Part shown: positions 5,740 to 64,000 of the stretch, piece after piece | Position numbering within the stretch: the stretch's first letter is position 1 | Layout: each line of letters opens with the position of its first letter | From: Fistulifera solaris | Lineage: Eukaryota | NCBI GenBank assembly: GCA_030295235.1 | Contig: AP026167.1 | Location: forward strand, 1 to 64,000 | DNA length: 64,000 nucleotides | Direction: 5' to 3' | Translations under genes and position numbers: made by a program | Notes under the pieces: generated by a model | Told to the model about the DNA's origin: nothing | What the model saw: only the letters and a program-made list of their open reading frames with translations | Databases searched by the model: none

Positions 5740-6185
5740 AACATTTCCGGACGCTTTCGTTCGTGCCATTTCTTGTCGACTCGTCCGTGGTCAATATAAT
5801 AATTAAGATTATCGCATATTTTTCTCGGAGAGCTGAAAAGGATTTGCATCGCGTATAGACTCACACAGCACATCCACGTTGATCCGTCTCCAATTGCCGA
5901 TGCCACAAGCATTGGTTAAACTGTCGCAAATTGTTTCACCATAAGCAACGTACCATTATAGAAGCGACCTAGCGAGTCGAGCTGATGGTGAGCCGTTCGA
6001 GTGTCTTTTCGGCAGAACCATCTTGTATCTTGTATTGCAGTCATGCAATTTCGGCAAAGGAATTGCGCCGGTTCTTCCAGAAAGAGACAAATTGGCAACG
6101 TTGATTGCGTCTTTGCCGGCCGAAAAGCCTTTTGTTCGATCAAAGGCAGTTTCGTGGGAATGTGCTGCAGTATTGGGTCATCCAT
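5740..6185 (-). pseudogene. Family A copy with a large internal deletion (N-terminus joined to C-terminus)
   Basis: MDDPILQHIP..EQKAFRP..LPICLFLEEP runs directly into LGRFYNGT..*PMLVASA, which matches the family C-terminal motif. Confidence 0.6.
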
Positions 6186-6271
6186 CGTCTACGTTTTCTA
6201 TTCTTGTGAAAAATACTAGTTTTGAACTGATTAAACGTTTTGTTGCAAGCAACAATTCTGTTTCTTTGGCG

Positions 6272-7830
6272 CTAGTCCAACGACACGACCACGCCTGTGC
6301 CGCTCATTAGCTCACAAAGCATATCCGTATGAAAGGACAGCAGCTGCGCTGAGTACGGAAAGTCCGACGAAGCGCATTCTGTCACGGCGGCCGCCACCAA
6401 CGATGGCCGAAGAGATGTAGGCTCTTTTGCGATCTTTGTAAATCGGGTATAGATGTAGTTATGCGCATAAATTTCGGCCGATGGAGGACCCATTTGTGAT
6501 CCTTTTGCCCTCTTTGTCGGTGAACAATGAGATTGTGTTTACGGAGAGCAACCGCCTCCAGAGCGGAATAATAGGGCCGGCAGGCGAATTCATTATCATC
6601 AACTTCTGACTCCCTCGTCAACCGGGTGGAAAGGGATGCAATGTTACCACACGCAATCGCTCGCTCTCGGCGATAGTATCAAGACATTATTCAAAGGGGA
6701 ACCCAAAGAGAAGAGAAAAGGGGTGTTGCTGAGTGTAAGATGGGTCAAATTGTTATTTGCACTCAAGGCAGCAATCAGTGCCCGAACGACAGGTTCCGGG
6801 TCATCAATTGCTAACGGCGGGTGAAAAGGTGGAAATGAAGAATATCGTGGAGTGTCCAAGCACAGTCGTTCAAAATGACCTAAATGGGCCACACGGGTAA
6901 TAAACGCGACCAGCTTTCCTCCGCCTCTGTCGTCTATTGCGAAGCCACTTGAAAGTCACAGAAAGATCTTTCGTGACTATATCGAGAAAATCCAAGTCAT
7001 GTGGACGGATAATAGAGATTCGACTCTCGTAGTCTAGAGTTTTCACCTTCGTGGAGAAAGGGGTAAAGTATTCATCTAGGTCAGATATTTGAGTCGTGAG
7101 TTTCTCGATTACATTGTCAAGATTCAAAAGTTGTTTCAAGCCATAGAAAGGCATCCCTTCAAGGGTGCCGCCTTTAATTGATAATGAACCGAAAGAAGAT
7201 TGTCGGCTCTCCAATGCATCAACGAATGCGGCGCCTTCATCCATGAAAATTGGAAAGCATCTCTCAGACGTCAAAATGAAATTAAAAGATACGATCTCGT
7301 AGCCATGACCCTGGCTTGCTCTGGAGTCCAAGGCCCTGTTTGCAACTCAATTTTACGGGTAGGATTCGCGTCGAAAATTTGCTCAAGCTGTTTCGGTGAG
7401 AAGGCGGCAACATTGAAGTACCGACTTGCGCCCTCGCGAAGACAACCTGTCGCCCTTCACATATTCGATGTGAAGCGATGCTTCCGGATGCTTGGGATGC
7501 TTTAAAGACCAGAACCATGTAGCCGTCTCGGCGACATCTTCATCCGTTCTGCCGAAAATCGCGCAGCAGAGCCTTTGCACTTTGTTTACGTGTCGAATCG
7601 AAAAAAATACACCTCGACGATCATTTAATCTAAAGGAGCCGCGAGGACTATTCAGAACTCGAATGATGCTATTACCGCCGCGCAGAATTAAAATTTCGGG
7701 GTTTAAACATTCTTCCCAGTTGAAATCATCAAGAGAGCTCGGTTCACGCGCAATTTTGTACATCGGGACGTTGCATTCAAGGAAGCCGTGCGTCTCTTTC
7801 GGAATCAGCTCCACTACATCCTGACGTCAA
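6272..7830 (-). pseudogene. Family A (LRR/RNI-like) copy with several frameshifts
   Basis: ELIP, REPSSLDDFNW, IFGRTDEDVAETATWFWSL, AFVDALESRQSSFGSL, PFSTKV, NLTHLTL and FHTDMLCE are spread over 5-6 ORF fragments. Confidence 0.8.
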
Positions 7831-8311
7831 AAGCCAAAAAGCATGTTTAGAATGAACATAGACTATGTTTTTATCGCAACTGCGAGACGCTTTGTCACGA
7901 CTCCATTTTAGTCGCGAATGTATCACAATAATCTTTATTCATTCGTCTTTTGACGGCCAGACCAATTTATAGTTATAATGAATTCGTTTCTTTGACTGCG
8001 TTAATAAGCCTTTAATTGTCTAGCTTACTAAGTCAATACCCGAAGCAGCATTACCGTACACTGCTTGTCAAAAATTAATGGGAATCATGACCGTCAACAC
8101 TCGCAACAATCCAAAGAGCAACAAGACTCTATACGTTATCAGCCAAGACCGAATTTCAGTAATGAATCGTTATTGGACACGTCGAGCCTTTTGAGACCTT
8201 TCTTGACATGGGATTCCTTATAAACTAGATTTTTCAACTTTCAACTGCTATGAGCCTAATTTGTCACGGTATGATCGCGCTCCCGATCAATGATTGTGCG
8301 TAAGTTCAAAA

Positions 8312-8868
8312 CTACCAGAATGTCTGTATGCCCGAAAACACCGACGATTCCAGAATTTCTGGAAAGTATCCACAATGTATGTATCTGTATGCCTGAAAAC
8401 ACAGATGATTCCAGAATTTTTAGAACGTATCCAGAACGTCTGTATGTTCGAAAAACCGACTCCACAATTTCTGGAAGCATCCAGAATTTCTGTAATCTCG
8501 AAAAAGCTCTTCCAGAATTTCTGGGAATTGTCCAAAATGTCTGTATGACCGAATTCAGCGTTTCCAGAAATTCTGAAACTAATCCAGATTTCACTTCGAC
8601 TAAGAACACCGATTCCAGAATTTCTAGAAATACCCGGATTTTTCAAGCATGAGCACCTTGAGGCGCTTCTTGAGTACTTTTTGATCGTCGGCCATGGTGC
8701 CAGATCTGGAAAAAAACCAAAATGTCCACATGCCCGAAACCACTTACTTCAAAATTTTTGGACCGTATTCAGAATGCCCGAAAACACCATACCTTTTGAA
8801 TTTCTGGAACGTATCCAGAATGTCTGCTTGCCCGAAAACACAAACTCCAGAATTTCTGGAACGTATGC
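8312..8868. repeat. Degenerate minisatellite with near-palindromic core TTCCAGAATTTCTGGAA
   Basis: Repeated ccagaatgtctgtatgcccgaaaacac..gattccagaatttctggaa units of variable length; at least 8 core copies. Confidence 0.85.
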
Positions 8869-8896
8869 CACTTTGATTCAACAAGGAAATACAGAC

Positions 8897-10593
8897 TTAA
8901 ACTTTTCGAGCTGCTTTCTTCCCAACGAACGGTGACAAGGTCGTTCTTTCTCGTTTCGAACGAACAGTACCTTGAGAGTGGCTAGCTGAGTCAGTTAATC
9001 CATCATCCAATTCAGGCTCTGAAGCGACAAAATCTTCCCAATTAACTCCCTGTATTGATTCAAACAACACATCAGGGTGATTGGAGAGTAACAGCGCTGT
9101 GTTCTGGAAATTCCTGGATCCGCTTCCCGTCAAGGCCTTAAGGACCAGTAATGATCGTAATTCTGATTTTTCTTTTGTAAGCTTTGCGGAGCCGTTGTAA
9201 AATTTATTTAACGCGTATAGCACATCGATGCTAGACCCATTCGTGAAGATGTTTCCTTGATGATCACAAATCTCGATCTTCCGATTACGCGACAGTAAGC
9301 GCTCGAGCAAAGAGTAGTCTGGCGGGAGCGACTCATGGGAGCTATCGTCATTTCCTGAATACGTATTATAGTCCGGTGGATAATCATGTAAAACTATTTC
9401 ACGCAGTCCGCTGTGTACCTCCAAAGCTTGAAATACAGTTTCCAAATTGGGAGCCTTATCGAAAAGGAACAGAAATGCCCGCAAATCCAAATAGATGAGC
9501 TTTGTGTTTTTATTGATCATATGAATCAGTGCTTGTACAACGAGCGGTTCATCCCCCTCTTGTAGCCGATTCCAGTAATTAGAAAACGAAAAATCCAACC
9601 GCAAGAAATGTCCCAACCCCGCCAGTCGATTCAAAAACGCAACAACAAGCGTACCCGCTACTCGCCTTTCGACGTAATCAAAGTTGATTTCAAGATTCAG
9701 ATTTTCTGTTGTAATTTCGAGTGAACTGAAGTCTTCTGGTTTCATATCTTTTGCATGGATTTTGTAGTCCAAGCAGTTCACATGGGCCATCAAAGGAAGA
9801 AAATGTAGCTCTTCTTCGAGAACAGGAAGTTTGAGCGTTTTGATTTTGTTCTCCAGTGTCAATAGTCGGTGTAGATTGAGGCGAATCATGGGCATCTTGT
9901 CTGTAGGACACCTAAAATCGAGCATTCCAAAGGGTGATTGTTGATTCTCCTCCAGTGCATCTACGAATGAAGCCCCTCCATCTGAAAACCCCAACCCGTC
10001 GCGCGCCTCCATGAGAATCATGATGACAGGGTAAGACCGTGATCCCAAAACATGGCCCTGCTCTGCCGTTATTACACTGGTAGACAAGCAAAGGCACCGG
10101 GTGGGGTTCGAGTCGAGTACTTGAGCTAGCTGCTCTGCTCGAAGAGAAGCAAAATTGAACTTCGGCCCATAGGGGCGCTCAACATAATCGCTTTTGCAAT
10201 AATGATCGATTCGCAATAACGCACCCGTGATTTCCGGATGCTTGAGTGACCAGAACCAGGTGGCGGTTTCAGCGATTGCAGCATCCGTTTTACCGTAAAT
10301 GGCGCAGTTTACTGCATGACGACCGATTTTGTTGAGAAAAACGTGACACATCGTTCGTGATATTCTTGATGAGCGTAAGATCCCACGCACAAAATAGTCC
10401 CATTATCGCGCCACAAAGTGAGCGGATATCCGTTTCCAAGATCAAGTTCTTGAAGATCGATCGGTTCTCGAAGCAATCTGTGCAAAGGCAACTTCTCTGC
10501 AAGAGACGCCAATCGATAGGACTTTTGCTCTGCTGTATAATGTTCCTTTTCAATACATTTAAACAGAGCATCATTGTTGTTGCTTTGCTCCAT
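8897..10593 (-). CDS. Family A protein, about 565 aa; one homopolymer frameshift at 10337-10341
   Basis: ORF MEQSNNNDALF..WRDNGT..ERCVTFF joins LNKIGRHAVNCAIYGKTDAAIAETATWFWSL if one T is added; full motif set; basic C-terminus RSKRER..KKAARKV. Confidence 0.85.
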
Positions 10594-10981: not shown

Positions 10982-12529
10982 TCATTCATCTTGCAGGGAA
11001 AAACGAGTCATTGACATTGAGGTTTGCAGGAACTCGCACAGCATGTCCGTGTGGTTCGATAGCAAAAGTGAGGTATACTGAACGTTTTGTGAAGCGCTTT
11101 CCGTCAATGCAGTTGCCACGAACACCAATCGAAGTACTTGAGTTTCTTCCAAAACTTTTGCTGAACCATTAAAAAAGGAATTGAGCGCGTATAGCTTGTC
11201 GATGCTCGACCCGTTACTAAATTTTCGACCATGATAATCACAAACGGTAATTCTGCGGTTACGCGAGAGTAGCCGCTCTAGTGAAGAATAGTCCCATTCT
11301 CGCGGATCTTCGGAATTGTCTTCTGCGTTGGAGTAATATCCAGGTGGGTATGTGTGCAAAACGACCGTACGCAGTCCAGGGTGCTCTTCCATAGCTTCAA
11401 AAACAGCTTCCATGCAAGCGTCCGTATCAAAAAAGAGACGGAATGTTTCCCATATTCAAATAAGATAGATTTGAATTGCCGTTGACTGCGTTTATTATTG
11501 CAGGAACCACAACCTGATCGGCATTTGAAACTCGACTAAGATGCCAGAAGATGTCTTTATCGAATAAGAAACTCAATCTTTCGAAATGACTCAATCCAGT
11601 TATTCGATTCAAGATTGATGCGAGAAGGAAATGCCAGGTAGTACCTTCAGCACTGATTTGTAGCTTGAGCTCTTTCATCACCATGTCGAGTGACTCAAAA
11701 TCTTCGGGACTGAGGTCTTTGGCTTTGATGGAATAAACTAAAGTGTTTACCTTGGCCGCAAACGGTAGTAAAGCCATTTCGTCGCTTAAAAGACCTAATC
11801 TGAGTTCATCGATGATGTAATCAAGCTTTAGTAGTCGCTCCAGATTCGATTGGCTCATTAGCAATGCATCTTTCAGACAATTAATATCAAGAGAGCCAAA
11901 GCTAGATTGTCGTTTCCCGAGTTCATCTACAAACGCCGTTCCATCATCTTTGATCCCCCGAGCTCTACGTTCCGATGTAAGCCTCAAGTTCAAAGGATGA
12001 GGCCGAGTTGCTAGGATAACCAGTTGTTGTGTAGTCAACCAACTCGCTGTAAAACTGACACTTCTTGTCGGATTTGAGTCAAGAATGTGAGCTAGCTGAG
12101 CTGTTGAAAGAGCCGCAAAACTAAAGTTGCGCCTTTCGTCGTGAGACAAATGACTTCCGGTAATCAGATTTTTCACTGAATCAGAATGCGGAAGAGACCA
12201 GAACCAGGTTACCGTCTCAGCGATTGTCACATCCGATGTGCCGTATATCGCGCAGTTGAGTCGACGCTGGCTAACTCTATCAATCAAAAACTAACATAAC
12301 GTGCTTCTTCAAACTGCAGAGAAGGTTTGTCGCACACGCAAATGACAGTCTCGTTATCGCGCCAGATTACAATGTCGCGATTCGTTACCCAGTCAAATTC
12401 TTCGAGATGTGTCGGTTCTCGCAGCAAACGAAACATTGGCAGGTAGTCGGCTCTGTAGCCCAACTTGAATCCTTTTTGCGTGAAGAGTCCTTCTCTCGGA
12501 ATGAGCTCTAATAGCGGATTGTCGTTCAT
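10982..12529 (-). CDS. Family A protein; frameshifts at homopolymers 12286-12290 and 11429-11434
   Basis: MNDNPLLELIP..IWRDNET / IYGTSDVTIAETVTWFWSL..PFAAKVN / LLSRNR..NGSSIDKLYALN..LLSNHTD in three consecutive ORFs. Confidence 0.8.
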
Positions 12530-12919
12530 TTTTGATCAAGTTTAATGATAGTAAAGTATAACAATTCATTCTTTATTTTCAATGAGTCTTTTTATCGCAA
12601 TTATTTGCTGAGACAAATTGCTGCAAATACTTGTAATTGCGTACCAAGTACGGAGTAAAATACAGCGGACAGCGGGCACCTCGTTCGTTTTCGACTCAAT
12701 TGAACTTCAGTCCCGTACTGTAAATTGTCGCCGGACCAGCCAGAACATGCTAACAGTAAATGTATCGGTGTTGTGATCCTAACCTTGCTGTATTAATGAA
12801 TTTAAGGGGTGATTGATTGCGAAGGAAAATGTTGAAGGAGATAGGAGACTGTCACTCTTTCACCCCGATCATCCACAACCTGGACATTCAGGTTACGAGT
12901 CAGCAAATCCCCCAGCGCC

Positions 12920-13380
12920 GAATAGTACGGTTTTCAGGTGACCTCATAATCATCAACTTCTGATTTGTCGACAGGAGGGAAAGGATGGAAAGTAATGACG
13001 CACAAGCTTTCTTGCTCTCCGAGAGCATGAAAAAGCTTGTCCAAGTGGGGACGGGTGTGTCAACTCGGAGTTGCTGTTTATTGAACGAACTAGTGCTTCT
13101 GCAGCAGACGTGGCGTCAATCTGCCGACTGCTACCTACCAGTGAAAGATTAACCCAGCCACCCGATGAAAGAGCGAACTCAGTAGACCACCTATATCATC
13201 TGCCTCTCCCAGACGTAGTGTCAACTTGAGATTTTCCGTGACAATGTGCAAAGAACATTAGTCGTCTGGTTGAATGTGATCAGCTTTTAATTGGTATTCG
13301 CGAGCGTTGACGTTAGTGGAGAAAGGCATCAGAACAAGTGTTTTGTCCAGGTTGCTGCAAGGGTAGTTTGCATGGTATTT
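12920..13380 (-). pseudogene. Degenerate family A fragment
   Basis: Manual minus-strand translation gives LMPFSTNVNAREYQLKADHIQPDD* and HLDKLFHALGEQESLCVITFHPFPPV. Confidence 0.6.
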
Positions 13381-14199: not shown

Positions 14200-15895
14200 A
14201 GCAAACTTAAATGCTGTCTTTTGCGTTTCCGGCGGTCGGTTCCCTGAAGAGAAGCAACCAAAGCAGCCATATCTGTTTCCTCGACCACCGGTCCGGCAGC
14301 ATCAACATCGCTATCATCACCTAGAAAAGCACCGTCAAGTAGCTCGCAGCATGTCGGTGTGAAATGCCATTAACTGTGCGGAGTACTGGTAATCTGCCGA
14401 GGCGAAATCTATCAAGGCCGTTGCTACCAGCAACGGTCGAACAGATGTAGGCTCTTCGCAATCTTTGTGAATCGGGTATAGAAGTAGTTTCGGCGATAGA
14501 TTTCGTCCAATGGGTGTCCCATTTGTGATCCTATTGTCGTAACAACCCAAAAAGATGAGGTTGCGGTTTCGGGAAAGCAACCGCTCCAGCATAGAATAGT
14601 ACGGTTTGCATAGCCTTTCAAAATCAACATCTTGGTTAAGAGTATGATACACAGGAGGAAACGGAAACAACCTCACTGTGTGTAGCATTCCGTGTTCTTC
14701 GATGGCCTGAAGCAACTCCTTCACTTGGGTGTCAAATTCAAGCTCAAATGAGTTAGTGCAGGGTTGCCGTTGATTGCTCTGATGAGTGCTTGCACAATAG
14801 ATGCCGCCGCTGTGGAGTCTACTCGCCGAGTATCGATCTACGGATATCCCCAATCTCTTCAAATGTCGCGAATTGCGTCACCCTGTTGCAGAATGAAATC
14901 AGTAACGCCTCCAGATGATCCGACGAATCCACCTGGAACTTGATGCTGAGATCTTGCATAGGAACATTTAGGGTGTCCAAATCATTTGGCCTAATCCAGT
15001 TAGCATGCACCCGGTAGTCCAGTGCATTCGCCTTCGTGGAGAAGGGAAGAAATAAGTCTTCCGGGTAGAGAAGCCCAATTGTAAGCGTGTTGAACATGTC
15101 CTCATGGTTGACAATCCGTTCGAGGTTTGCGCGGCTTAAAGACATCTTATCGAAGCTATCGTCACCCACAGTGAGAGACCCAAATCGCGATTGGCGTGTC
15201 TGTAGATGGTCAAGGAACTGGGAAACATCATCTTTAGGACCGATACCAGTCCAGCCTTGACGTACTTTACCGAATTTCAAATTCAGAGGAAACGGTTGTG
15301 TCGCCAAAATCCTGGCTTGCTCTGGACTCCAGCAACCAATTTCGAGCTCAAGTTGCCGCTTCGGGCTGGACTGTAGTATGCGAATTAACTGATCCTCTCG
15401 TAGGGCAGCGAAATCAACGATGAATGGAAGATTGTGTTTATCATCCAGCAGGCACTTGTTGAATCGCAGAGATGCTTCAGCATGTTTCGGATGCTTGAAA
15501 GAGCAGAAAAAAGTCGCCGTCTCTAAAATAGCAGCGTCTGTTTTACCAGAAACCCCGAAATCCAAGTAAGATTAATGGTCGTAGTAAGCTTCGCCCAAGA
15601 AGACTGAAAAGGCAAAGGTGCGTCTCGTGACGCAAAATTCTCTTCGATAATCATCCGTAACGAAAGTTAATGTTTCATTTTCGCGCCAGATGATCATGTC
15701 AGGGTGTTCACGATTCAAGTGTTCGCGCCATTCTATTTCCCCTAGACTTTTCGGTTCTCGAGTAAAGGTGTAAACAGGTCCGTAATCGTCTCCAAGAAGT
15801 TCAACAGCGAACTCCTTTTGTCTCTCGGTGAGCTCTTCATCAGGAATGAGAACCAAAAGGGCTTTCTTGTCGACTGTTTGCTGCTGCGCTTCCAT
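14200..15895 (-). pseudogene. Family A copy closely related to 47003-48664; in-frame TAA at 15572 plus frameshifts
   Basis: MEAQQQ..LVLIPDEEL..IWRENET, then DH*SYLDFGVSGKTDAAILETATFFCS, FAALREDQLIRILQS, LLSRNR, FHTDML. Confidence 0.8.
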
Positions 15896-19669: not shown

Positions 19670-20410
19670 TTAGTTAGATTCAATGTAGATAAATACGGAA
19701 TGAACGAGAGTTTTCATATTGAACTCTTGTCCATGTCTTACTGTTCTCGTTTTCCGCTTCAAACTTGCACTAGTAAGACCTGGACCATTGAAGGCATGCA
19801 AATTGGATTCCTCTAATACGAAGCCTGCAGCATAAGTCCCTTCCTTGTCTAGATTTAAATCAGTAAACAGCTCTGTGCCGGTGTGATCTGCAACTAAGAG
19901 CCCTTTGTATTGGAAGTCTGCCGATGCACTTTCTGTCAAAGCTAGTCCGAATAATGGTAGTAGCATTTCTTCCGACTTCTGATTCTTTAATTAGCCCCAC
20001 CGATCCATGATAGATCTTATTCGAAGCATAGATTTTGTCAATGGTGGTCCCATTAGTGATCAACCTGTCCATAAACCGAGAACGGTAAGGTTGCGGTTTC
20101 GCGTAATTAATCTCTCAAGCGCAGAATAGTAAGGCTGAGATTGAATCTCATACTCCTCACTTTCGGGAATAGCATCGACTTCTGGATAGCTATCCAAGTT
20201 AATGGTACGCAGTCCATCGCGTTTTGCCGCGAGAGTTCACCACTTCGATATTCCGATTGCGCGAGAGTAACCATTCTAATGCAGAGTAATCACCTAGACT
20301 TGCATACTTTGGTGGGTATTGAACACAAAGTGTGCGAAGAAGCCCGGTATTCTCTTCCAGTGCCTGAAAAATATTCTCCAAATGTGGTTCAAATCGACGA
20401 CTTACCATTA
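19670..20410 (-). pseudogene. Two abutting family A C-terminal fragments
   Basis: PHLENIFQALEE..LEWLLSRNR at 20199-20408 is followed by a second LRTINL..LERLITRNR..NGTTIDKIY..SADFQY..HTG segment. Confidence 0.7.
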
Positions 20411-52438: not shown

Positions 52439-54019
52439 ATGGATCAAGAAAATCCTTTATTATTCCTCGAACTCATTCCCGGGCATCGCTTGACGGCGCG
52501 GCAAAAGAAATTACAAGCCGTCATATCATGGGCAGTGCAAGGACTTTCACCGATTTACCGCTTTCGGCGCATCCCGACGCATATTGCCGACTTGAAGCAA
52601 AACGACCGCAGTACTATTGCCATCTGGTGTAGTAATAATGAAACTCTTCTTAGTCTGAATGATCACGGCTCCATGGGTGTCAAACATTGCAACGTAGCCA
52701 TCGACCAAATGAAGGTTGCGATATACGGCTTTTCCGATGCGGCCATTGCCGAAACAGTCTCCTTCGTTTGCTCTTTAACATTTTCAGAAGACCCAAGTAG
52801 TCTCCGTATCGGCTCCGGGGATGGACGTAGCAATTTTAACTATGCTACGATTGCGCTGGCTCCGCTCTTGGATGCGAACCCACCGCGAAATTTGGATTTG
52901 CAGATTACCAATTTGACAATCGAGCAATCGAGAGATTTAGCGACACGACCGTATCCTTTGAATTTGAATTTGAATCTTAAGGAATTTTGTTTTTCGTTCC
53001 AAGACGGCGGAAATGCCTTTGTCAATGCGTTAGAGCATCGAACAACGCCTTTCGGGTCGCTGAGCATGACCTTGGGGAACAATGTGACACCTCCTGGCAT
53101 CCATCACAACAACGTTTTACGACTCTTTCAAATGGAGAAATTCGACAGACTTTACGTCTCGAATCCGGATCGAGACTGCGTCCTTCCCCTCCCTCGCCGC
53201 CAAAGTAAATGGGCTAGAATGTTACATTCACGCCAAGGATATCGCGCCATCCGATTTCGATTCACTCAACATTGTCGCCAAAGACTTGAATGTGAAGTGG
53301 AATTTGAGTCATGCGGGCAACTGGAGTGACATTTTGATAGCATTCTTTCATCGGTTGGCTACTTTATGTCACGTAGAGAAGCTCGCGTTTTCGGCCGCAA
53401 ACTGGGTCGCCATCCATGTGTTTGGACATGACGCCGTGGCGCCGGTTGCCGCGGCCTTGGTCCGCACCATTCACTCCAATCCAGCGTTGCAACATTTGGA
53501 ATTGAGTCATGTGCCAACGATCGGCTTGGATTGGACGTCTCATATGCAAAGTATATTCCAAAGTCTGGAGGAGCATCCCAGCATCCGCACCTTGATTGTG
53601 AGTGAGGTGATTCCGTTCCGAGATACACGCACGGACGAGGAACGTGAAGAGTACTTTTCGTGGCTCGAACATTTGTTGTCTCGCAATCACTACCTCACCG
53701 TATTGGATACTTCTGGGCAAAGGGTCACGAATGGATCGAATATCGACAAGATTTATCGGGATCGGTACTATCATCTAGCGGCGACCAAAAGTGCATACCA
53801 ACACTTTCGTCATACGGTTCACTTGTTGTCGATTCTTCACACCGATGCCTTGTGCCAGTTCATGGAAAATGTCGATCCGGGTGGGGCGTTGCTTCGCAAT
53901 CTGTGTTGGAGAGTGAGGCACAGCTCCCTGCACCAAACAGTCCTACGGTATTTCTCAAACGTAAATTGACAATGCAACCATCGGGTGATGAAGCGAAAAA
54001 GGTTCGAAATGAGAGTTGA
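52439..54019 (+). CDS. Family A protein; frameshifts at 53186-53189 and ~53890 and a shortened C-terminal region; possibly a pseudogene
   Basis: MDQENPLLFLELIP..IYGFSDAAIAETVSF; NPALQHLEL..LLSRNH..NGSNIDKIY; tail LKRKLTMQPSGDEAKKVR. Confidence 0.7.
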
Positions 54020-54169
54020 GCCTCGTTGCAGAAGAGCATTGTTGCCTTGCGTTGTCTAGCTCCTCTCAGTAGATAGTAGTAATATAATGCAAATTTACAT
54101 TACTTGACACCTAAAGCGACGACTACTTACTACTTTTTCAATCCGGATCTTAGTTCCAAGGTGGCGCAA

Positions 54170-54830
54170 AGACCTACCGTTCTCTTTTTCGTTTCAAACG
54201 ACCCGATCGATGTGATGCATCAAAGCTGAGCGCTGTGCTGATTTCGTCCATGGTCGTTTCCTCAAAAGCACCTAGTTCAGCAAAATCCAACCTCTCCATA
54301 TATTCGCACAACGTGACCGTATGATCAAACAACAAGAGCGCTGCATGCTGAAACTTTTCCCGCCGTGCGTTTCGTTAAAGCCATTGGTACTAAAAGTGAT
54401 CGCACTTCGGTAGGCGCCTCGAGCAAGGACACGGATCCATTGTACAGTCGGTTGAGTGCATACAGTCGGTTAATGCGACGTCCGTTCGAGAGCGTGTCGC
54501 CCGATTCATCCAGTACTTCCATACTTCGGTTCCGCGTAAGCAACTTTCTCATCCAGGGATAAATGTTCGTCGTTGGTGGTTGACCTTCAACGACCAGTGT
54601 GCGCATACGTTTGTGCACTTCTAACGCCTTGAACACACCCTTGAAATGAGGAAGTCCAGTCAATGTTCCCATGATCTTTGCCCAAGGCCAAATGTGTCAA
54701 GTTCGGATTGCCGTGGATGACGCGTATCAGTGCTTCGGCTACCGGTGCTACTTCAGAAGCATCCGGAAGTTGGTTCGAGTCCGAGAAATCATCATCATGG
54801 TCGAAATCTTCCTCCGCATCACTCTCCAAG
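54170..54830 (-). pseudogene. Family A C-terminal half; 5' part deleted
   Basis: VAEALIRVIHGNPNLTHLAL, LLTRNR..NGRRINRLYALN; abuts a duplicated promoter block. Confidence 0.75.
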
Positions 54831-54839
54831 TCATTTACT

Positions 54840-55070
54840 CATCTTGTTTCTTGTTTCCTCTTGTTATGTTTTATCGGAAGAAACAAACAAACAAACAAAA
54901 AAAGCCCAAAAAAATTCAAAGAATCTCAATGAACGTCCGACTCAACGTCCGGGACTGAAATAATGTTCACTCGTGTGGTTGTATTTGTAAAATAGAAAGA
55001 TGTCGTACCAGTAGAGAGATAAGAGCTTTCCGTACGTTGCCTCATTTTTTCGTCTGCCCGTAAGCCGAGA
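54840..55070. repeat. Dispersed duplicate of the intergenic block at 62165-62390
   Basis: Identical core acgtccgggactgaaataatgttcactcgtgtggttgtatttgtaaaataga plus matching flanks (ttttcgtctgcccgtaagccg). Confidence 0.9.
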
Positions 55071-55339
55071 CGAAAAAGATCTTACGATTCGCGCGCAGTG
55101 AGATAATAATGAATAATGACTCTTTTATTGCGGACTTTGTCATTGCGATCGGAACGAATGCTAACTCGTTTTGTGCTATTATTCCATTCCACAAACAATC
55201 AAAGGAAAGCAACTCGCTTGCATCTTTAATTGCAATCTCCCAGCGAATTTTTTGCTTTGGAACGGGAATTTTGTTGCCCTGTCAAGTCCCTCGTTTTGGC
55301 CACGCGGCCGTATCCTTTCCATTAGGGATTATCTTATGT

Positions 55340-56710
55340 GAGAAAGGGCGACTTTAATTTCAATGACAAAGGAAAAGCATTTGTCAACGTAATCGAGAAG
55401 CGACAATCTCCATTTGGATCACTTCGTATTACAGGAATGCATCTTCGTAGCGCTAACCTGGAGCGTCTCTCGGAAATAGTGGGGATGTTCGATAAGATTT
55501 TTGTCCAATGAGGCAGGGAAATTTCGGCTTCAAAAACAGGGGGAAAGCATTCGTCGATGCGCTCGAGCAACGGAAATCTACATTTGGGTCGCTGGGATTC
55601 GATGGAATGCCTTTCAGTAGGCCGAATTTGGAACGGCTTTTGATATTGGAAGGGACGTTCGACAGGCTCTCGCTCTCTGTACCTAAAGAGGATTTTGTTG
55701 TTGATGCTTTCTCCGCCAAGGGGAATGCTTTCCATTACACAGTCAACAACAGAGCCAGAAGATTTCCATGATCTTGATATTGTGACAAGAAATCTCAGTC
55801 TTAAAATTGTCGTAAAAATCGGAAGGGGAGCGCTTCCGGTACTGGTGGCGTTCTGGGACGAGGAGCAGAATTGGGGCATTTCGTGAGTCTGACTTTGTCG
55901 ATCTATTCCTCGGTCATCTTTCGTTCCATGATATGCTTCCGACAAGTTGTATACGTTCGTGTATAATGGGCCGGCCGACTTCCTTCGACCGCTACGTATG
56001 GCAGTGGAGCAACACAAACAAGACGGAAGTAAAAGAAGACGCATTTGATGATAGAAAGCAATCAACTGATTCCTTATTCGCTTGCATGCATTCACGCGAA
56101 AATTCAACACCATTTCCTAAAGCGAAAGAAACATGCGCAGAGCCCCTCAATTGACAGCTAAAGAGACAAGAGCCCTATCGATCGCCCGCTTCTGACTTCT
56201 CAATATCGAGTCTGTTGCAAAACGCCAGCTGTTTGAGCTCGTTATTTCGCCCATTTCAAGGAAAAAGCAGCAATCTTTTTATTGCTCACAAGACTCAGGA
56301 GTTCAGAAGTTCAGAACCGTTCCTTGTAGTCTACTTCGACATTTGAAGCGGAGCAAAGAAAGGTCGAGGATTGGGTGTTGAAGCTCATTCCGGAAGAAAG
56401 AACAACTTTCTTTTTGGCAAGAATGACCTTACAATCCCTGTGTACCGATTCTGTCGCAAGCCGAGGGATCTTCCGGATCCTTGTTGATGGGCCAGTGCTT
56501 CGACCGAAAGTGCGTAACCAACACTTTCGTCGTCACATTTGCTGTCCGATCACACCAACATACTTTGCGGAGCTTGTATTGATCGAGACGATAGCTTGGC
56601 CTATGCAAAACAATTTCCACCTCACCTATGCTACGGAAGGATCCAGTGAAGTGAATCCTCAGATCCATTGTCACCTACCATGCGATGTTACAAAGAAACG
56701 GAGAAACTAA
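55340..56710 (+). pseudogene. Cluster of family A remnants
   Basis: Two tandem GKAFV..LE.R.S.FGSL segments (55360 and 55530), FSAKGNA, LDIVTRNL; LKLIPEER at 56375; HCHLPCDVTKKRR tail. Confidence 0.65.
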
Positions 56711-56850
56711 AGGCAGCAACGAAACATGAAAAACATAGTGCGATGTACGACTTTCAACTTTGGAATAACATGGAATTGATTGTTACGCATGTCATGTTGG
56801 CCGCTTTCTATCATGCACTCTCATCTCTACAAATGCAATATCAGAATGGT

Positions 56851-57732
56851 TTAGTTGCAGTGATCGCCGAACCACTCCCACACCCACCTAGATCCGTTGC
56901 AGCAGAAATTGCATGAAGTGCCAGCAAGACAGCGCGTATTGGCACCGTAGCAGCCAGTCTTACCAAGGAGATAGATCCCAACAGCTCCCCAGTTTGCGTT
57001 CTTGGCACAAAACCATCCGGAGGAAAGCAAACCGCGCTGTTCCAAGGAGTCGCCCGCGGCAGCACAGCAGCCTTCCCAGCCACTGTAGACTTGCCCTGCC
57101 TCAAATCCGGCGCTGCTAGAGATAACCTTGCCGTCATTCCCAAATCCAAACGAAGTCAAGCCGAATTCACCTCCGCATCCCATGACCTGTTCGAAGGTGG
57201 CATCATTACTGAAGCTTCCAAGTGTTATGGAATAGTCATCGCCGTACACAGCTGTGCAGGTCCCTCCATTGCCCACACAGCTGCTCGCCCCTTCGACCGT
57301 AACCTCGCCTGTCTCACTTTCCGTAGAGTACTTGATAGCGCGGCAGCCGCCGTTTGCCTTGCAGTCAGCAATCCACTCGTCACAGGCCCACGAGCCATCG
57401 ACGGTCTCGTGGCCCCACCAGATATCCACCGACCCCCGGAAGACGATTGGATCTTCCTGGTAACAATTCCAACGGGTAGATGCGATGTAGGGACTTTCTA
57501 CTTGTTCGGATCCGTTTGCACCAGCCCCGTCAACGCATCCATTGGCAGCGGGGTCGAAGCCAGCCTCAAGTGGAGAGCACTTCAGCACCCCACCGGAGTA
57601 ACTGCCTGTGCAGCACGACGTTGCCGATGCGCAATCCGAGCTTGTCGTGCAAGGCTCCCAATCGGCGACTTGAGTGAAAACTGGCTTCGAGGCGATCGCC
57701 ATGGTAACGAGAGCAAGTGGTGTGATCTTCAT
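56851..57732 (-). CDS. Secreted Cys/Trp/Gly-rich multi-module protein, 293 aa
   Basis: Signal peptide MKITPLALVTMAIA; modules WEPCTTSSDC..CCTGSYSGGVLKC..NGCV, WNCY..IWWGH..WACDEWIADC..GC, and CLAGTSCNFCCNG..W..WFGDHCN; uninterrupted ORF. Confidence 0.85.
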   Translation of the reverse strand: MKITPLALVTMAIASKPVFTQVADWEPCTTSSDCASATSCCTGSYSGGVLKCSPLEAGFDPAANGCVDGAGANGSEQVESPYIASTRWNCYQEDPIVFRGSVDIWWGHETVDGSWACDEWIADCKANGGCRAIKYSTESETGEVTVEGASSCVGNGGTCTAVYGDDYSITLGSFSNDATFEQVMGCGGEFGLTSFGFGNDGKVISSSAGFEAGQVYSGWEGCCAAAGDSLEQRGLLSSGWFCAKNANWGAVGIYLLGKTGCYGANTRCLAGTSCNFCCNGSRWVWEWFGDHCN

Positions 57733-59341
57733 GATGCCGACCTGAAGGAAAGATCGAAAAGTCGATTAGCGGCTAGACAACTGTATTTGAAGGATGTCGA
57801 GCGGGAAAGGGGGGCGTTTTGAGATTGTTTTTCGTTGAATTGCACATCTAGGATTTTATCTGTAACTCCGTACCTAGTTTGGGAAAACTTGAACGACGAT
57901 GGCGTGGGACAACGATGTTGGACAAGCGTTGTTTCTTTTTTTATGAGGAGCGGAGAGCAACAAGGTTCGAACATCAGCAATCATCACCAAGATCTGATTC
58001 AGGTCGTGCCGTCAAGTTAGATTCACGGAATACCATCATAGGTAGGCTTACATTTTACATTTTACAGAAATATTGGTTCTACCCCACCCCAATACCGTAT
58101 TTCGTAGCTCCCGCATACAAGACTTACTAGGTGACTTGTGCAGGCCAAACAAGCTTGACATATTTATTGAAGACAAACACCTCTATAGAGACTAGTCCGC
58201 TTTCACTGCGAGACAGGAGGAAGTCCGATTCCGAGCTTCGAGTGCATCATCGCGCGCGCGATCATCATTTCTAATTTCTACCGTTCGTTTTGCGTTTTGG
58301 CAATTGGCATCGTCAATCGTCATTCAGGTCTTGTCCACGTCATCGGCATGGCGTACTCTGTCGTTCATAGTCACGTTTTAACTTTGAAGGTCCAAGATCC
58401 AACTGAATTTACCTCTGTGGTTGGACACTTGACTTGTGCTTGTGGCAAGTGCCAAGTTCATTCATTCGTGCCAAAAGTCGTTGACCAAAAACCAAAAGGA
58501 TCAAGTATCAAGTGTTAACTCTCAAGCTAGCTAGAAGCTCTAGACAAGAAAGAATGTATGAATGCTGCAACGCCTAACGATGCCAAGTGCGAAGTGCCAA
58601 GTGCCTCTCGACTCCCGACACTCGACAGATACTCTACTCTATCCTACCTGTACAGTAGAGGTTTTCTCTAATAGTTCTATTCTCTACCAATATGTCTAAT
58701 CCATCCATTCGTGTCAAAATCTACAAAGTGCCGGAATGGAATAATATATGTGACAAAATGAAAACAACAATTGAAAATGCAGTCGAATGTCAAAATGGCA
58801 TTCAGATTTTAGGAAATTAGGAATAAATATTTAGGATTATTTGTGTTTTGTCCTTAATTCTGCCTTCTGCCTCCAGTTAGCTGGTACTAGTGTAGTACAA
58901 AGTACTGGACATGGTACAAGATGATGATGATTCATTCTACGTCATCGTCGCACTTTCACCTGTTGCCTGTTGCGTCTAGCTTGGCGTCTGCGCACACTCC
59001 TGCTTTTTATTCGCCATCGTCCTGCGCACCTCGATTTTTTTGGAGATTGGGATAGTTTTTATTCGTGAAAAAAAAGTTCCGTTTTCCCCGCGTGTTTGTT
59101 CTTTGAGAAGAATCCAGCTTTTGACAAATCGAACTCAACAGCTGCATTCTACTCTTACAAATAAATCAGAAGCATCGGGTACGTTCGTCCCGGAAAACTC
59201 TTTACAGTTGACAGAAATGGATTGTAGAAAGCGAGAAATCGTTCGGTTGTCCAAAGTAAAAGCGGGAAGACCTATACTTCTCTTAGTGATCAAGCTTGTT
59301 AGTCTAACGTCTTCTTTCTGCCCCTTATTGTTGACAGGTTT

Positions 59342-60112
59342 ATGAAGATCTTTGCATTACTGCTCCGACATGCTGCAATTGTTGTGGCAATCTTCGCAGA
59401 GATAGCCCTTGTACAAAGCATCAATCCAGACACTTGGAAGCTTTGCACGACAAGTTCGGAATGCCCTCCAATAGATCACTGCTGCACGCCGAAGTACTCG
59501 CACGGGGTATTGAAGTGCGCTAATTTTTCCGGTCCGTTTGACTTTAATTCCAACGGATGCGTACCTTTCACCACTCCCACGCCCCATCCAACGCAGTCTC
59601 CTACGCCGTCTCCCACGCCACTTTCGACGGTTTTCTTGACGCTGTCTCCCACGCCCCATCCAACGCCATCTCCCACACCAATTCCGACGCCGTCTCCCAC
59701 GCCCCATCCAACGCCATCTCCCACACCAATTCCGACGGTTTCCTCGTTGCCTGAACTAGTCCCTCTCAATACCGCTTACACTAACGCTACGGTAGCACCC
59801 AAAATGACTTTCACTCCTACGGTAGCACCTATTGTGCCAGTGGGAGACGGTGGTACTGATAGAGCTTCTAGTGGTGATGGCGGAGGCGGTGATGATGATC
59901 CAAAAGTGGGAATAATCGTTGCGGTCATCGGTGCCACCGCGACAGTTCTTGCCGTTTGGGTTGGTAAAGAGACATACCAACATAATCAACAGGCGGCTGT
60001 TGCGGCCGCTGCAGGTGCTCAGGGCGGTGCTGCGAACCCTGGTGGCCAAGAAGGACCACCGCCCCCTACTAACGTAAACACAAACACAATTCATTGTTTT
60101 GTGGTATTGTAA
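59342..60112 (+). CDS. Type-I membrane protein, 256 aa: Cys-rich head, PTPSPTP stalk, TM helix
   Basis: Signal peptide; [29 protein letters not shown]-rich repeats with a 48-bp unit near 59640-59740; [20 protein letters not shown]. Confidence 0.85.
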
Positions 60113-60289
60113 GACAGTTACGGACAATAATATTTTATACTTTCCCTTAATCTTTCGAAGTAACACTAAATCTTAGTAATACAAGTAGAATGAAAATCCT
60201 GTAGCAATCTTTCATGTATCTGTTTAGGGGGTTTGGGGTCGTAAAACTTTTGTCTTATGTCGCCTGCACGAGTCAACTACTAAGTCTTA

Positions 60290-60890
60290 TTGTTTTCGCA
60301 ACACGCGGTGCAGATTCTCGCCACTCAAGGGCATCATTGTTTTCATGAAGAAACAATTACCAAAGTGAACCTTGCGTTTCATGAGCGCCTTTGCAAACGC
60401 GTTTCCATCATCTTGAAACACAACATCGTCGTCTGTCACCGGCGTTTCATCAATATATAAGCAACGAAACGAATCTGTCGCTAGCACTCGAAAATCCTTT
60501 GCCGTTCACGCGCCTGTTTGTAAATGCAATATATGTGGGCTGGGCTTTCAAAATATGCGCTAACTGTTTCGGTTGGAAGGTTTTCCAATCAAAAAGTGTC
60601 GACCTCGAATATACAACACGCCCCTTCCGATTTCTATAACAATTTTGAGACCAAGATCTTTTGTTACAACATCAAGCTCTTGGAAGTCTTCTAGCTCAAT
60701 CTTTCTGGTGTCGACTGTACAATACAGAGCATTCATCTTGGTGGAGAAAGCACCAACAACAAAATCCTCTCTAGGAACAGAGACCGAGAGCCTTCAGCAA
60801 AGCGACAAAGCGAGCTTTGCGTTTCGTGAGCGCCTTTGCAAACGCCTTTCCATCATCTTGAAACACAACATCGTCGCCTGTCACCTAAAA
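60290..60890 (-). pseudogene. Rearranged family A remnants with an internal ~69-bp direct repeat
   Basis: FQDDG.AFAKAL.KRK is encoded twice (60372-60440 and 60817-60885); 60620-60790 is the inverted homolog of 55665-55830. Confidence 0.7.
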
Positions 60891-61120
60891 CTGATTTAGA
60901 TGCCCTTTTATACAGGACTTCCTCTTGGATTGAAAAATATCTGATGTCCGCGCTTGTTCTGTCCTGTTGTTCTTTCCAACGAATGTGTTTGCTTTGTGGT
61001 TAGTTCGCCATGCAGAGAGATAATCGTAGTTGAATTGAAGTCGTCTTTCGAGTTTTACCGAAAATGGATATTTGATAGTACATTCCTGATGTATGGCGTA
61101 CAATTGCTCAATGTCTTCCT

Positions 61121-62102
61121 TCATCCGTGTCTTTCTTGAAGTTCGTAAGCGGTGATCTCTGCTTCTAAAATGATACTTGAAATGAGTAAGTCAGCCCAGT
61201 CATGGACGAGATCCAATCTGAATGCAATGTCGAGATCTTTTGCAAGAATGGGAAGCTTTTCAAAATCACTGGGCATCAAACATTCGGCATGCACTTTGCA
61301 CGAGAAAGCGTTGACTCGCGCCGAAAACGAATCCAGAATTTCTTCTTTTCGATACAACGCACCCATCGCTAGCTTATCGAACATGTTATTTTGTTGCAAT
61401 AGACGTCGAATACTGGTCGAACATGCCTGTTGCAAATCGGGACGGAAGAAACTACTCGTCGACGACATGTGAAGTGATCTGAACGAAGATTGTCGTCGTT
61501 CCAGCGCTGCGACAAATGCCGCTCCTTTATCTTGAAAACAACAAAATCCATACGGTCCATCGTCGTCGAGTTTCAGTGTCATCGTCTAGGGTCTCGTGGC
61601 CAAGACAACGGATTGCTCGGCCGTCCACGTTCCACATCGCAACGATAACTGTCGATGGGCATCCAAAATGGAGGCGAGTTGCTCGGGCCGAATGACGGCA
61701 CAATCAAAACAAAATTCGTTTCGACGACTGTCCATTTCAATGACGATTTGCTTCGATTTGACAGACCCAAGGAAAGTAGTCAGCGTCTCAGCAATCGCTT
61801 CGTCCGCTTTTTCCGTACACGACACTTTCGGCTTGAGAACGCCGAAAACAAACGTGTCGCTCTTGAAAGACGCGATCGGCATTTTTGGATAAACAAAGAA
61901 AGGTCCCATTGTCTCGCCATATGCAAATATTGTCATCCAGCTGTTGCCAATCAGGTTCTCGCAATAATCAACATTGATAAATGGGTAACGTCTCACACCG
62001 AATAGTGGCGGTCGGTACGGTCGAAAGGCTTTTTGTTCGGCTGACAATTGATCGACAGGAATGAGTTTTAAGATGTCTTTGTTTGTTGGTTGGTTGAGCC
62101 AT
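61121..62102 (-). pseudogene. 3'-truncated family A copy with an in-frame stop
   Basis: DILKLIPVDQLSAEQKAFR, DEAIAETLTTF, WTAEQSVVLATRP*TMTL, AFVAALERRQSSF, FSARVNA. Confidence 0.75.
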
Positions 62103-62164
62103 TGGAAAATACAAAAGTCAATGGAGTTTCTGTGAGAATAATATTAACTTATGAAGTCATATCT

Positions 62165-62390
62165 CATCTTTTTTTCCTTTGGTTGTTTCGAAGCAACAAC
62201 AAAAAAAGTCCGCGAAAAAATTCAAAACGAATCTCCATACCTGGAAATAACGTCCAACGTCCGGCTCCACGTCCGGGACTGAAATAATGTTCACTCGTGT
62301 GGTTGTATTTGTAAAATAGAGAAATGTCGTACCAGTACAAGAGTTTTCCTCCCGTTATTGCCTTATTTTTCGTCTGCCCGTAAGCCGTGA
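62165..62390. promoter_or_regulatory. Intergenic block of a divergent family A pair; duplicated at 54840-55070
   Basis: Lies between ATGs at 62102(-) and 62522(+); near-identical copy at 54.9 kb. Confidence 0.55.
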
Positions 62391-62521
62391 TTGTGACGAG
62401 AAAGACCTTTCCTCTTTATGGGTCTCGGTTTGCAGCAAAGTGGCGAACAAACAATAATAACAAAAAAACATCGACACATTAGTCGATAACTGCTCATGCT
62501 TTTAACTTGAAACTCAACAAA

Positions 62522-64000
62522 ATGGAACCAGAGATAGAACGAGAGAAGTTCCTCTTGGAGCACATTCCAGAAGAACGGCAATCTGCCGCGCTAAAATCGT
62601 TTCGACCAAGGTCGTGTTCTGGTCGAAATTAAAAATGTATCGATTTGTGAAAGACCCCCGTGATCTTATAGGATTCGAGTGGAGGAGATGCTCGAAAACT
62701 GCTATATGGCGAGACAATGGGACGATCATTTGCCTCGGTGGTGCCGGTTTTGAGGCATATCTGGATCGATACTTTTTCCAAAGCAGGGGATTATCACTTC
62801 AAGGGCTCTATCTATCTACGGTAAAACAGATGCGGCAATTGCCGAGACAGCTACGTGGTTCTGGTCGTTACAGCGTCCAGAAGAAAATTCCTATCTAGAG
62901 ACTTTCATTATGGACGCAAGGGAGGATCAAATCTTTGATTTTGCTGCCCTACAGCCCGAGCCATTGGCGCGTATCCTCGACTGCAACCCAGCACGTAGAT
63001 ATGCGTTCACAAAAGGAAGTTGGAACACGGCACAATCCGTCATTCTTGCATCAAGGCCCTATTCTTTGAAGTGGAAATTCACCGAGGACTCCTTTGCTTT
63101 TGAAGACGACGGCACAGCGTTTGTTGATACGCTAATCAATCGACACTCTTCGTTTGGGTCGCTGCATTTTGACTGCAAAATTGATGATATGCCTTTGAGC
63201 CGCCAAAATTTTAAACGCCTCTTGAAACTTGGCAATTTTGATAAGCTCAAGCTCAGGTACCTTGACGAGGAAATGATTCTTCTTCCCTTCGCTGCCAACG
63301 TGCATGAGCTTACCTACGTGATCAATGCACGAGATTTTCAGCCGAAGCATATCAAATCTTTGAACGTCAAAACCAGGAAGCTCAAATTAGGCATAGGATT
63401 GGACGACGTAGTTGATTGGGATAGGATTCCTGTTTCCTTTTTGAATCGTTTCAGCGAAATCGGCACTTTCGAGAAGCTGCACTTCAGCGTTAATTCTTGG
63501 GACCTACGACAGCCCATTGACGTAAACAAAGTAACGTCCATTGCTGAAGCAATAATTTCAGTCATAAAAGCGAATCAATGCCTAATGCACTTGAATTTGA
63601 GTCATTCTTACTACACCTTTGACTGGCTTCCTCACTTGCAGAGTATTTTTGAGGCCGTGGGAGGTCACGAGTGTCTACGTGAGCTTATTGTTCCTGATTA
63701 TCCTGAGCAAGAAGATCCCAACTATTCCTGGCTGAAGCGCTTGCTTACTCGTAATCGAAGTATTATGGTATTGTATCATAAAGGCGACAAGATCACTGAT
63801 GGATCCAGTATCGACAGGCTGTATGCGTTGAATCGATGTTATCGTGGATCGGCAGCACTAATGAAGGAGGAGTCTATATCCTTGCGACCACATCTTGTAG
63901 CGGCAGCATTACAGAATAACGCGTCACGGAAATTTGATCATGCAGCATTATTGCTTGCCAACCACGTGGACGTGCTATCCGAATTTATGCACGGCGCAGA
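62522..64000 (+). CDS. Family A protein running off the window end; two 5' frameshifts (~62610 and ~62780)
   Basis: MEPEIEREKFLLEHIPEER; MYRFVKDP..IWRDNGT; open frame IYGKTDAAIAETATWFWSL..PFAANV..LLTRNR..DGSSIDRLYALN..LLANHVDVLSE to base 64000. Confidence 0.82.

Follow-up and report, generated by a model that had tools for sequence, protein, structure and literature searches.

The first 64,000 nucleotides of Fistulifera solaris contig AP026167.1 (assembly GCA_030295235.1, forward strand), referred to below as the window, begin with a telomere repeat and carry an array of genes of one family whose products are predicted to be leucine-rich-repeat (LRR) proteins. The family and the array are real and previously undescribed. 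Taking all the evidence together, we read the region as an old, syntenic subtelomeric tandem array of a lineage-restricted diatom family of LRR adaptor-like proteins, in which the paralogues appear to be individually maintained, and we give this reading a probability of about 0.6.

A family hidden Markov model (HMM) of 546 positions was built from 22 proteins (alignment A1) and run on all stop-to-stop segments of the six reading frames. It returned 86 matches between 6060 and 63995, which were chained into 35 pieces and merged into 29 family loci, 15 near full length (an HMM span of at least ~450 of the 546 positions) and 14 fragments. Because the best segment E-values reach 1e-180 to 1e-210, the matches cannot be attributed to chance. 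These counts agree with a sequence-only reading of the window, which had proposed 28 to 30 copies with about 15 near full length, most of them pointing toward the telomere; indeed, 11 of the 15 near-full copies are encoded on the minus strand and transcribed toward the telomere, and the proposed telomere linkage is borne out by the (CCCTAA)n repeat, which marks the chromosome end. Only the start given there, position 5740, has to be moved, as the first detectable family sequence is a weak match at 6060, followed by a match at 6296, from where the family runs to the end of the window. The array starts ~5.6 kb from the telomere repeat, and family sequence makes up 29,137 of the 58,261 bases (50%) between 5740 and 64000. 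Four loci (3, 4, 8, and 13) are 98.6 to 100% identical to FisN_10Hu408, FisN_10Hh407, FisN_10Hh404, and FisN_10Hu401, respectively, which are sourced as F. solaris hypothetical proteins, and the VWA/Cache gene embedded in the array is FisN_10Hh399. These near-identical protein matches place the window at the end of chromosome 10 in the H subgenome of F. solaris, an allopolyploid pennate diatom. The loci, with their outside counterparts, are as follows.

1 to 437: telomere repeat (CCCTAA)n, chromosome end, by direct reading.
6296 to 7775, minus strand: locus 2, degenerate, in five segments with frameshifts without homopolymers and 67 HMM positions absent (HMM and junction check).
8903 to 10581, minus strand: locus 3, FisN_10Hu408 (98.6% to P0040), one frame break at an A5 run.
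11006 to 12529, minus strand: locus 4, FisN_10Hh407, two frame breaks at A4/A5 runs, where the model skips or re-reads 1 nt; counterpart P0110 (81%).
12850 to 13356, minus strand: degenerate family fragment covering HMM positions 253-444 (HMM).
14347 to 15871, minus strand: locus 6, probable pseudogene with one in-frame stop and two frameshifts.
17758 to 19296, minus strand: locus 8, FisN_10Hh404, one frame break at a 4-base homopolymer.
23978 to 25596, minus strand: locus 13, FisN_10Hu401, one frame break at an A5 run; full-length 559-aa counterpart P0174 elsewhere, in the same 90%-identity cluster as the locus 13 model.
26471 to 27875, plus strand: locus 14, probable pseudogene with three in-frame stops and two frameshifts.
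28059 to 29769, minus strand: locus 15, 561-aa open reading frame (ORF), one N-terminal frame break; counterpart FisN_10Lh400 (80%).
38264 to 39884, minus strand: locus 20, four frame breaks, of which one lacks a homopolymer; counterpart FisN_10Lh398 cluster (91% over 287 aa).
41235 to 42780, minus strand: locus 22, two frame breaks, homopolymers available; counterpart FisN_10Lh397 (79%).
44925 to 46392, minus strand: locus 23, two frame breaks (45092 and 46092); counterpart FisN_10Lh396 cluster (74%).
47003 to 48664, plus strand: locus 24, uninterrupted 553-aa ORF, the modeled protein; intact 553-aa orthologue P0001 (89%) elsewhere.
49941 to 51490, minus strand: locus 26, one frame break at a T4 run; intact 523- and 528-aa counterparts P0067/P0172 (94%) elsewhere.
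52439 to 53966, plus strand: locus 27, a single frame break at 53191 (C-run), an assembly error; corrected ORF of 526 aa.
62617 to 64000, plus strand: locus 35, one break near the N terminus, truncated by the window end.
6060-6182, 16409-17451, 19841-20396, 21677-21769, 30502-31411, 37476-37760, 49079-49168, 54246-54763, 60299-60875, and 61178-62083, minus strand: family fragments.
22704-23589, 40617-40733, and 55239-55853, plus strand: family fragments.
33054 to 35206, minus strand: VWA plus Cache/PDC-like non-family gene, FisN_10Hh399, used as a local yardstick of divergence.

The paralogues of the window share 35 to 47% of their amino acids with one another, and the best long DNA self-matches within the window reach 67 to 73% over ~1 kb; no self-match above 80% and longer than 200 bp was found there, nor any sign of gene conversion. 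Their counterparts, on the homoeologous chromosome 10-L or in other assemblies, are overall 74 to 94% identical, and loci 13, 15, 20, 22, 23, 24, and 26 have counterparts that are intact and full-length. On 10L, the order 396-397-398-(VWA 399)-400 parallels loci 23-22-20-VWA-15 toward the telomere, and because these gene orders mirror each other, the array is collinear at the two homoeologous chromosome ends. A quick IQ-TREE tree of 47 rows, whose long branches make the deep nodes unsafe, pairs nine window loci with an outside counterpart at Shimodaira-Hasegawa-like approximate likelihood ratio (SH-aLRT) values of 99 to 100; eight of these nine pairs have short tips and long stems, while the pair of locus 27 and P0066 is only 48% identical and has a long tip. 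The label "window" requires 14 changes for 15 rows on the tree, so the window copies do not group together, and copies from chromosome 28 nest among the window lineages. These sequence comparisons indicate that the paralogues are ancient and have been kept one-to-one and collinear between the homoeologous ends. The birth-and-death evolution that had been proposed for the family holds on the long time scale only, for which the fragments and some real pseudogenes are the evidence; no recent duplicates are present.

As written, 47003-48664 (553 aa) is the sole uninterrupted full-length ORF among the 15 near-full loci. We compared window positions 44001-64000 with the Logan contigs of four runs, of which X1 comes from the same organism and X2 is an independent metagenome run. 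The depth of X1 is ~17 to 22 and even over genes and spacers, so this run was taken as DNA; X3 and X4, guessed to be RNA, gave short, patchy contigs (11 and 2 of 30 bins) that are indistinguishable from low-coverage DNA. Across the 15.9 kb of records listed, X1 differs from the window by nine single-base indels and no substitution, about one homopolymer-length error per 1.8 kb. All 12 indels listed sit in homopolymer runs of 3 to 7 bases, seven being common to X1 and X2, and two of those on which both runs agree coincide with frame-break junctions, at 45092 in locus 23 and at 53191 in locus 27. The breaks at these two positions are errors of the window assembly. Applying the X1- and X2-agreed indels in silico lengthens the locus 27 ORF from 296 to 526 aa, spanning HMM positions 8-513, and the locus 23 ORF from 337 to 454 aa, and one additional X2-only indel brings the latter to 554 aa; the locus 23 break at 46092 is removed in X2 only.

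Loci 3, 4, 8, 13, 15, 22, 23, 26, 27, and 35 contain frameshifts only, and the permissible interval includes a homopolymer of 4 or more bases, in several of these loci exactly at the junction. The models FisN_10Hh404 and FisN_10Hh407 cross their breaks by a single-nucleotide skip or re-read, from which we gather that the annotators took the breaks as sequencing errors. According to the accessible text of the preprint 10.1101/2021.11.10.468027, the earlier assembly of F. solaris came from pyrosequencing, and the homopolymer-indel pattern fits such an origin. Many apparently broken copies are probably intact. Homopolymer error as the cause of every frame break was ruled out by loci 2, 6, 14, and 20, which, together with the 14 fragments, are probably real pseudogenes. 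Since the frame breaks of the assembly are partly homopolymer errors, inferences of gene decay from it need confirmation at the read level.

Against its counterparts, the embedded VWA gene is 86 to 87% identical, which falls inside the 74 to 94% of the family, so the family is not conspicuously faster than its neighbor. At locus 24, the differences to X2 include, among the 18 listed, 10 nonsynonymous and 8 synonymous ones, and all 10 of the nonsynonymous changes reproduce the P0001 residue, which identifies P0001 as the orthologue of locus 24 in that lineage. A crude estimate of the nonsynonymous-to-synonymous rate ratio (omega) of roughly 0.3 to 0.5 suggests that locus 24 is under purifying selection. 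The 60 differences between locus 24 and P0001 fall 11 in the 165 residues of the N-terminal domain, 35 in the 295 of the LRR part, and 14 in the 93 of the C-terminal part.

The family proteins are ~510 to 575 aa long, with three modules in the AlphaFold models. AlphaFold2 modeled the 553-aa protein of 47003-48664 (22-row alignment) with a predicted local distance difference score (pLDDT) of 77 and a predicted template modeling score (pTM) of 0.76. In this model, the N-terminal region is β-rich, with strands at residues 68-117 and a helix at 120-131; strands and helices alternate over ~165-460, with ten strand-helix units within 181-457 and a strand spacing of 21 to 40 residues; and the C-terminal part consists of conserved helices. 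The top rows of a Foldseek search against the PDB were all LRR proteins, namely, COI1 and NLRP7 (E 1.6e-4 to 4e-4, with COI1 at 1.6e-4), NLRC4, NLRP3, CARMIL, and ribonuclease inhibitor (RNI). All 50 rows of a VIA fold search, which does not depend on Foldseek, were LRR proteins too, with chicken ribonuclease inhibitor 4per_A first (Z 14.8, 319 residues aligned), and included NLRP3 9dh3_D (Z 14.7), axonemal LRR proteins (Z 13 to 14.7), RanGAP 1k5d_C (Z 13.7), and NOD2 (Z 13.4). A profile search of PDB sequences gave weak matches to LRR chains only (RSP15, E 0.024; NLRP5, E 0.25), and in the ESM Atlas the protein adjoins a 108-member Bacillariophyta "hypothetical protein" cluster and then RanGAP and LRR_TMOD-LMOD clusters. 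Because the model, Foldseek, VIA, the weak profile matches, and the Atlas neighbors agree, a predicted α/β horseshoe of ~10 irregular ribonuclease-inhibitor-type LRRs over ~165-460 is supported, in line with the RNI-like solenoid that had been suggested from the letters.

When the first 165 residues were modeled alone (45-row alignment; pLDDT 80, pTM 0.77), the N-terminal part of 145 residues showed a conserved α/β domain at ~15-145, for which VIA gave a best Z of 3.7 and none at or above 5, Foldseek a best E of 0.53, and the Atlas no usable match to the 165 residues. At E<=0.1, each Pfam family hit one of 45 members at most, and the intact copies had no Pfam match. Neither these 45 members nor 12 long ones have a Pfam match to a NACHT/NB-ARC NTPase, and the best Z of 3.7 leaves the N-terminal domain without a P-loop fold match; TIR, death-fold, and kinase modules were found neither by Pfam (0/45) nor by the N-terminal fold search. 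As for adaptor modules, the 45 members have no Pfam match to an F-box, no BC-box or other adaptor module was detected in the 45-member Pfam and N-terminal fold searches, and Skp2 (Z 11.7), Rad7 (Z 10.8), and ZYG11B (Z 9.7) match in VIA through the LRR part only. In a crude hydropathy screen of 107 full-length members, 2 have signal-like N termini, 9 have transmembrane-like segments, and 10 have strongly basic C-terminal tails; given how few are signal-like or transmembrane-like, the family proteins appear most likely to be soluble and intracellular. The 553-aa open copy and the annotated models show no gaps when aligned to the genome, and the genes are therefore intronless, as had been supposed.

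The anchor motifs picked out by the sequence-only reading are present in the alignment consensus: IWRDNET, YGxTDAAIAETAxFFWSL, DDGTAFxxALE.RxSSFGSL, LLPFSAKV, LGHFE.L, LERLLSRNR, NGTTIDKLYALN, NFQY, and LLSxHTD. In an alignment of 127 members, conservation extends over the N-terminal motifs as well as LERLLSRNR, NGTTIDKLYALN, NFQY, and LLSxHTD at the C terminus. At the LRR strands of these members, a conserved core alternates with highly variable exposed positions (entropy deciles of 6, 0, 7, 1, 8, 5, and 8 at residues 293-299), and the most variable blocks are the loops directly after the strands.

An exhaustive HMMER search of 1.84 billion representatives gave 484 clusters (50% identity) at E<=0.001, 154 of them at E<=1e-30. 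Among 30 clusters that were looked up, 17 have members with an organism name, and this is always F. solaris; besides chromosome 10, named members come from chromosomes 2, 7, 13, 18, 20, 26, and 28. Several other contigs hold three to five members each, so arrays occur outside the window too. In the same database, the VWA gene has named proteins from other diatoms (Epithemia and a Bacillariaceae metagenome-assembled genome). Judged by these sequence searches, the family looks lineage-restricted among diatoms. Scans of metagenome_contigs with the single protein and with a tighter alignment, A2, gave no confirmed relative, and a scan of viral_contigs gave no relative. The family had been called uncharacterized, and it is so: its proteins share no Pfam family and are named "hypothetical" or "uncharacterized protein" or left blank, with the sole exception of an automatic JGI label, YggL (DUF469 family), on P0162, and our literature search found no account of it or of any diatom LRR family at subtelomeres. 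The F. solaris nanopore preprint (10.1101/2021.11.10.468027) gives a telomere-to-telomere assembly of 44 chromosomes, in which telomere repeats are present at 82 of the 88 ends. Its accessible text does not mention subtelomeres, leucine, or gene families, although its supplements could list such genes; PMC8147415 does not mention these topics, and the LRRs in the available portions of PMC5485032 are of the receptor-kinase type only.

Some annotated members (P0022, P0023, P0099, P0111, and P0131) are 975 to 1379 aa long and hold two to three family units per model, reflecting either genuine tandem fusion or the joining of adjacent copies during gene prediction. The 12 longer members (593 to 1379 aa) have no extra Pfam domains, their extra length consisting of repeated family units (2 to 3 matched stretches).

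Non-family genes flank or interrupt the array at 4437-5489, 33054-35206, and 56851-57732. The ORF at 4437-5489 (plus strand, 351 aa from stop to stop) encodes a class-II fructose-bisphosphate aldolase (Pfam E 1.5e-73) and is the last recognizable non-family gene before the telomere; no Pfam-recognizable ORF lies in 440-4400. The VWA/Cache gene, annotated as 713 aa, occupies two overlapping ORFs in the window (33054-34082 and 33830-35206), perhaps owing to one more homopolymer error. Elsewhere in F. solaris, a paralogue bears the name voltage-dependent calcium channel alpha-2/delta-2. The ORF at 56851-57732 (minus strand, 293 aa), between family copies, is cysteine-rich with a signal-peptide-like N terminus and is without a Pfam match. 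At 58675-59341 and 44001-44667, both X1 and X2 show a contig depth 3 to 6 times higher than around these stretches (in X1, 115 versus ~18 and 67 versus ~20), which points to a dispersed repeat there; the neighboring ORF at 59303-60109 is acidic and proline-rich, with a PARP match at chance level only. Near the 5' end of locus 35 (62615-62700 and 62826-62874), the X1 contigs include one form with an 84-base skip and another with a 49-base step back; structural variation may account for them, or else a paralogue or homoeologue that cross-maps.

According to the above observations, we propose a binding-adaptor mechanism for the family, which the fold and the conservation pattern make perhaps slightly better than an even bet. 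The LRR horseshoe would serve as a protein-binding surface on which the exposed strand positions and ascending loops vary by paralogue, so that each paralogue would bind its own distinct partner, while the invariant N- and C-terminal modules would couple all paralogues to one common partner or machinery, as in adaptor or substrate-receptor LRR families. Purifying selection would maintain each paralogue, and a minority of copies plus the ~14 fragments would be pseudogenes.

Several observations weigh against this reading, both in its structural basis and in its evolutionary part. RNI-like LRR sequences are marked by regular repeats of 28 to 29 residues with LxxLxLxxN/C, while the spacing here is 21 to 40 residues and the Pfam LRR models match 0 of 45 members at E<=0.1; the LRR assignment comes from predicted structure, and repeat proteins may reach VIA Z values of ~13 through arrangement alone. 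Variable exposed positions are expected in any LRR family and do not prove paralogue-specific ligands, and the binding-adaptor mechanism is itself drawn from fold and conservation alone. The omega figure derives from 18 differences among those listed, and the taxonomic range from the 17 of 30 looked-up clusters that carry a name. The read comparison covers the breaks of 44-64 kb. Finally, the X1 contig that reads through the T4 run near 50605 still has the break of locus 26, and at least 4 of the 15 near-full copies (loci 2, 6, 14, and 20) carry in-frame stops or non-homopolymer frameshifts.

These last two points are also those that a decaying subtelomeric graveyard would predict, that is, an array of mostly neutral pseudogenes with one or two functional copies at most, and the single uninterrupted locus and the ~14 fragments lend themselves to the same interpretation. 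However, among the five frame breaks in 44-64 kb, two have been proven to be errors of assembly and a third is gone in X2, most single breaks elsewhere fall exactly at A4-A5, G4, or T5 runs, and seven of the loci have intact counterparts. The motifs moreover persist among paralogues of 35 to 47% identity, where neutral drift would erase them, and we regard neutral decay as unlikely. Still more doubtful is the idea that the family is encoded by a mobile or selfish element (transposon-, virus-, or Starship-like cargo) amplified at chromosome ends, and we assign it only a very small chance. The reading of the letters had itself named a transposable-element product as what would overturn its proposal, and reverse transcriptase, integrase, and transposase domains were found in 0 of the 61 non-family ORFs of at least 90 aa, the one rve match among 45 members being at chance level (E 0.036). 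The multicopy state, both orientations, the spread over eight chromosomes, and the dispersed repeat at 44.0-44.7 and 58.7-59.3 kb within the array would suit such an element, but the scan of the viral contig collection gave no relative, and the copies show high divergence together with synteny between homoeologues.

The sequence-only reading had likened the family to contingency or immune-receptor repertoires. In that case, the proteins would be intracellular sensors of viral, bacterial, or parasite molecules, with LRR surfaces under diversifying selection and a subtelomere that promotes variation or variegated expression. A multicopy array beside a telomere, 484 clusters in the family, pseudogene fragments that point to long-term birth and death, and a predicted LRR nearest to ribonuclease inhibitor and the LRR domains of NLRs are all compatible with it, as is the concentration of variability at exposed strand positions and loops and of the locus 24/P0001 differences in the LRR (35/295 versus 11/165 in the N-terminal domain). 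What decides the matter for us is the mode of evolution: the array lacks recent duplicates and gene conversion, its ancient paralogues have one-to-one collinear orthologues in homoeologues and other assemblies, its divergence resembles that of the VWA gene, and the crude 10:8 count (among the differences listed) is well below neutrality per site. Together with the lack of NTPase, TIR, death-fold, or kinase domains and of surface targeting by signal peptide or transmembrane segment in the searches given above, this leads us not to favor the repertoire, which we hold to be improbable.

We prefer the old, individually maintained array of adaptor-like paralogues, and one extension of it deserves mention, although we think the odds are long. 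The family might form a diatom-specific, NLR-independent system of intracellular recognition, in which fixed ancient paralogues with different LRR surfaces would feed one signaling or degradation machinery through their shared termini, and chromatin at the chromosome end would select the members expressed under viral, bacterial, or parasite attack. If so, since the paralogues are old and conserved, the panel would stand closer to germline-encoded pattern recognition than to an arms-race repertoire. To our knowledge, diatoms have no well-defined families of intracellular recognition or adaptor proteins, and most of their lineage-specific genes are unannotated. The family, with its divergent predicted LRR horseshoe and an N-terminal domain without structural relative, present on both homoeologous chromosome ends, is an entry point to the function of orphan diatom LRR proteins, to the organization and regulation of subtelomeres, and to duplicated arrays after allopolyploidy.

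Clustering, multiple copies, telomere proximity, and pseudogene fragments are common to the diatom array, NLR clusters, and the var and VSG families. The diatom family differs from all of these in lacking a nucleotide-binding domain, surface targeting, recent duplicates, gene conversion, and accelerated divergence over its neighbor; the ongoing duplication, ectopic recombination, and mosaic copies of var and VSG genes are not seen in the array. Nor do its members show the signal peptide plus transmembrane segment (107-member screen) or the kinase (45-member Pfam search) of extracellular LRR receptors.

Trypanosome LRRP/ESAG8 proteins are likewise intracellular, non-surface LRR proteins, and ESAG8 is located in a telomeric expression site. 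In the available text of PMC3605285, LRRP is counted among the conserved subtelomeric gene families, though two named ESAG8-like LRRP genes are chromosome-internal, and ESAG8-type proteins have a RING motif and a nuclear localization signal. The diatom family has no RING or other Pfam domain and no detected sequence relationship to them, and the organisms are unrelated, the diatom being free-living. PRAME of mammals is, like the diatom family, a large lineage-specific tandem family of intracellular LRR proteins of ~500 aa, thought to act by protein-protein interaction (accessible portions of PMC1262708, PMC3037382, and PMC8170798). PRAME has expanded recently, reportedly under positive selection (same portion of PMC1262708), whereas the diatom duplications are ancient and have one-to-one orthologues; an Atlas neighbor cluster labeled PRAME C-terminal (score 0.83) is a lead only. 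With RNI-like LRR proteins, such as ribonuclease inhibitor, RanGAP, and the LRRs of NLRP and NOD proteins, the family shares the same predicted horseshoe of concave parallel strands and convex helices. It departs from them in its irregular spacing and missing sequence-level LRR signature, and, without NACHT/NB-ARC, it adds to the horseshoe an N-terminal α/β domain and C-terminal helices.

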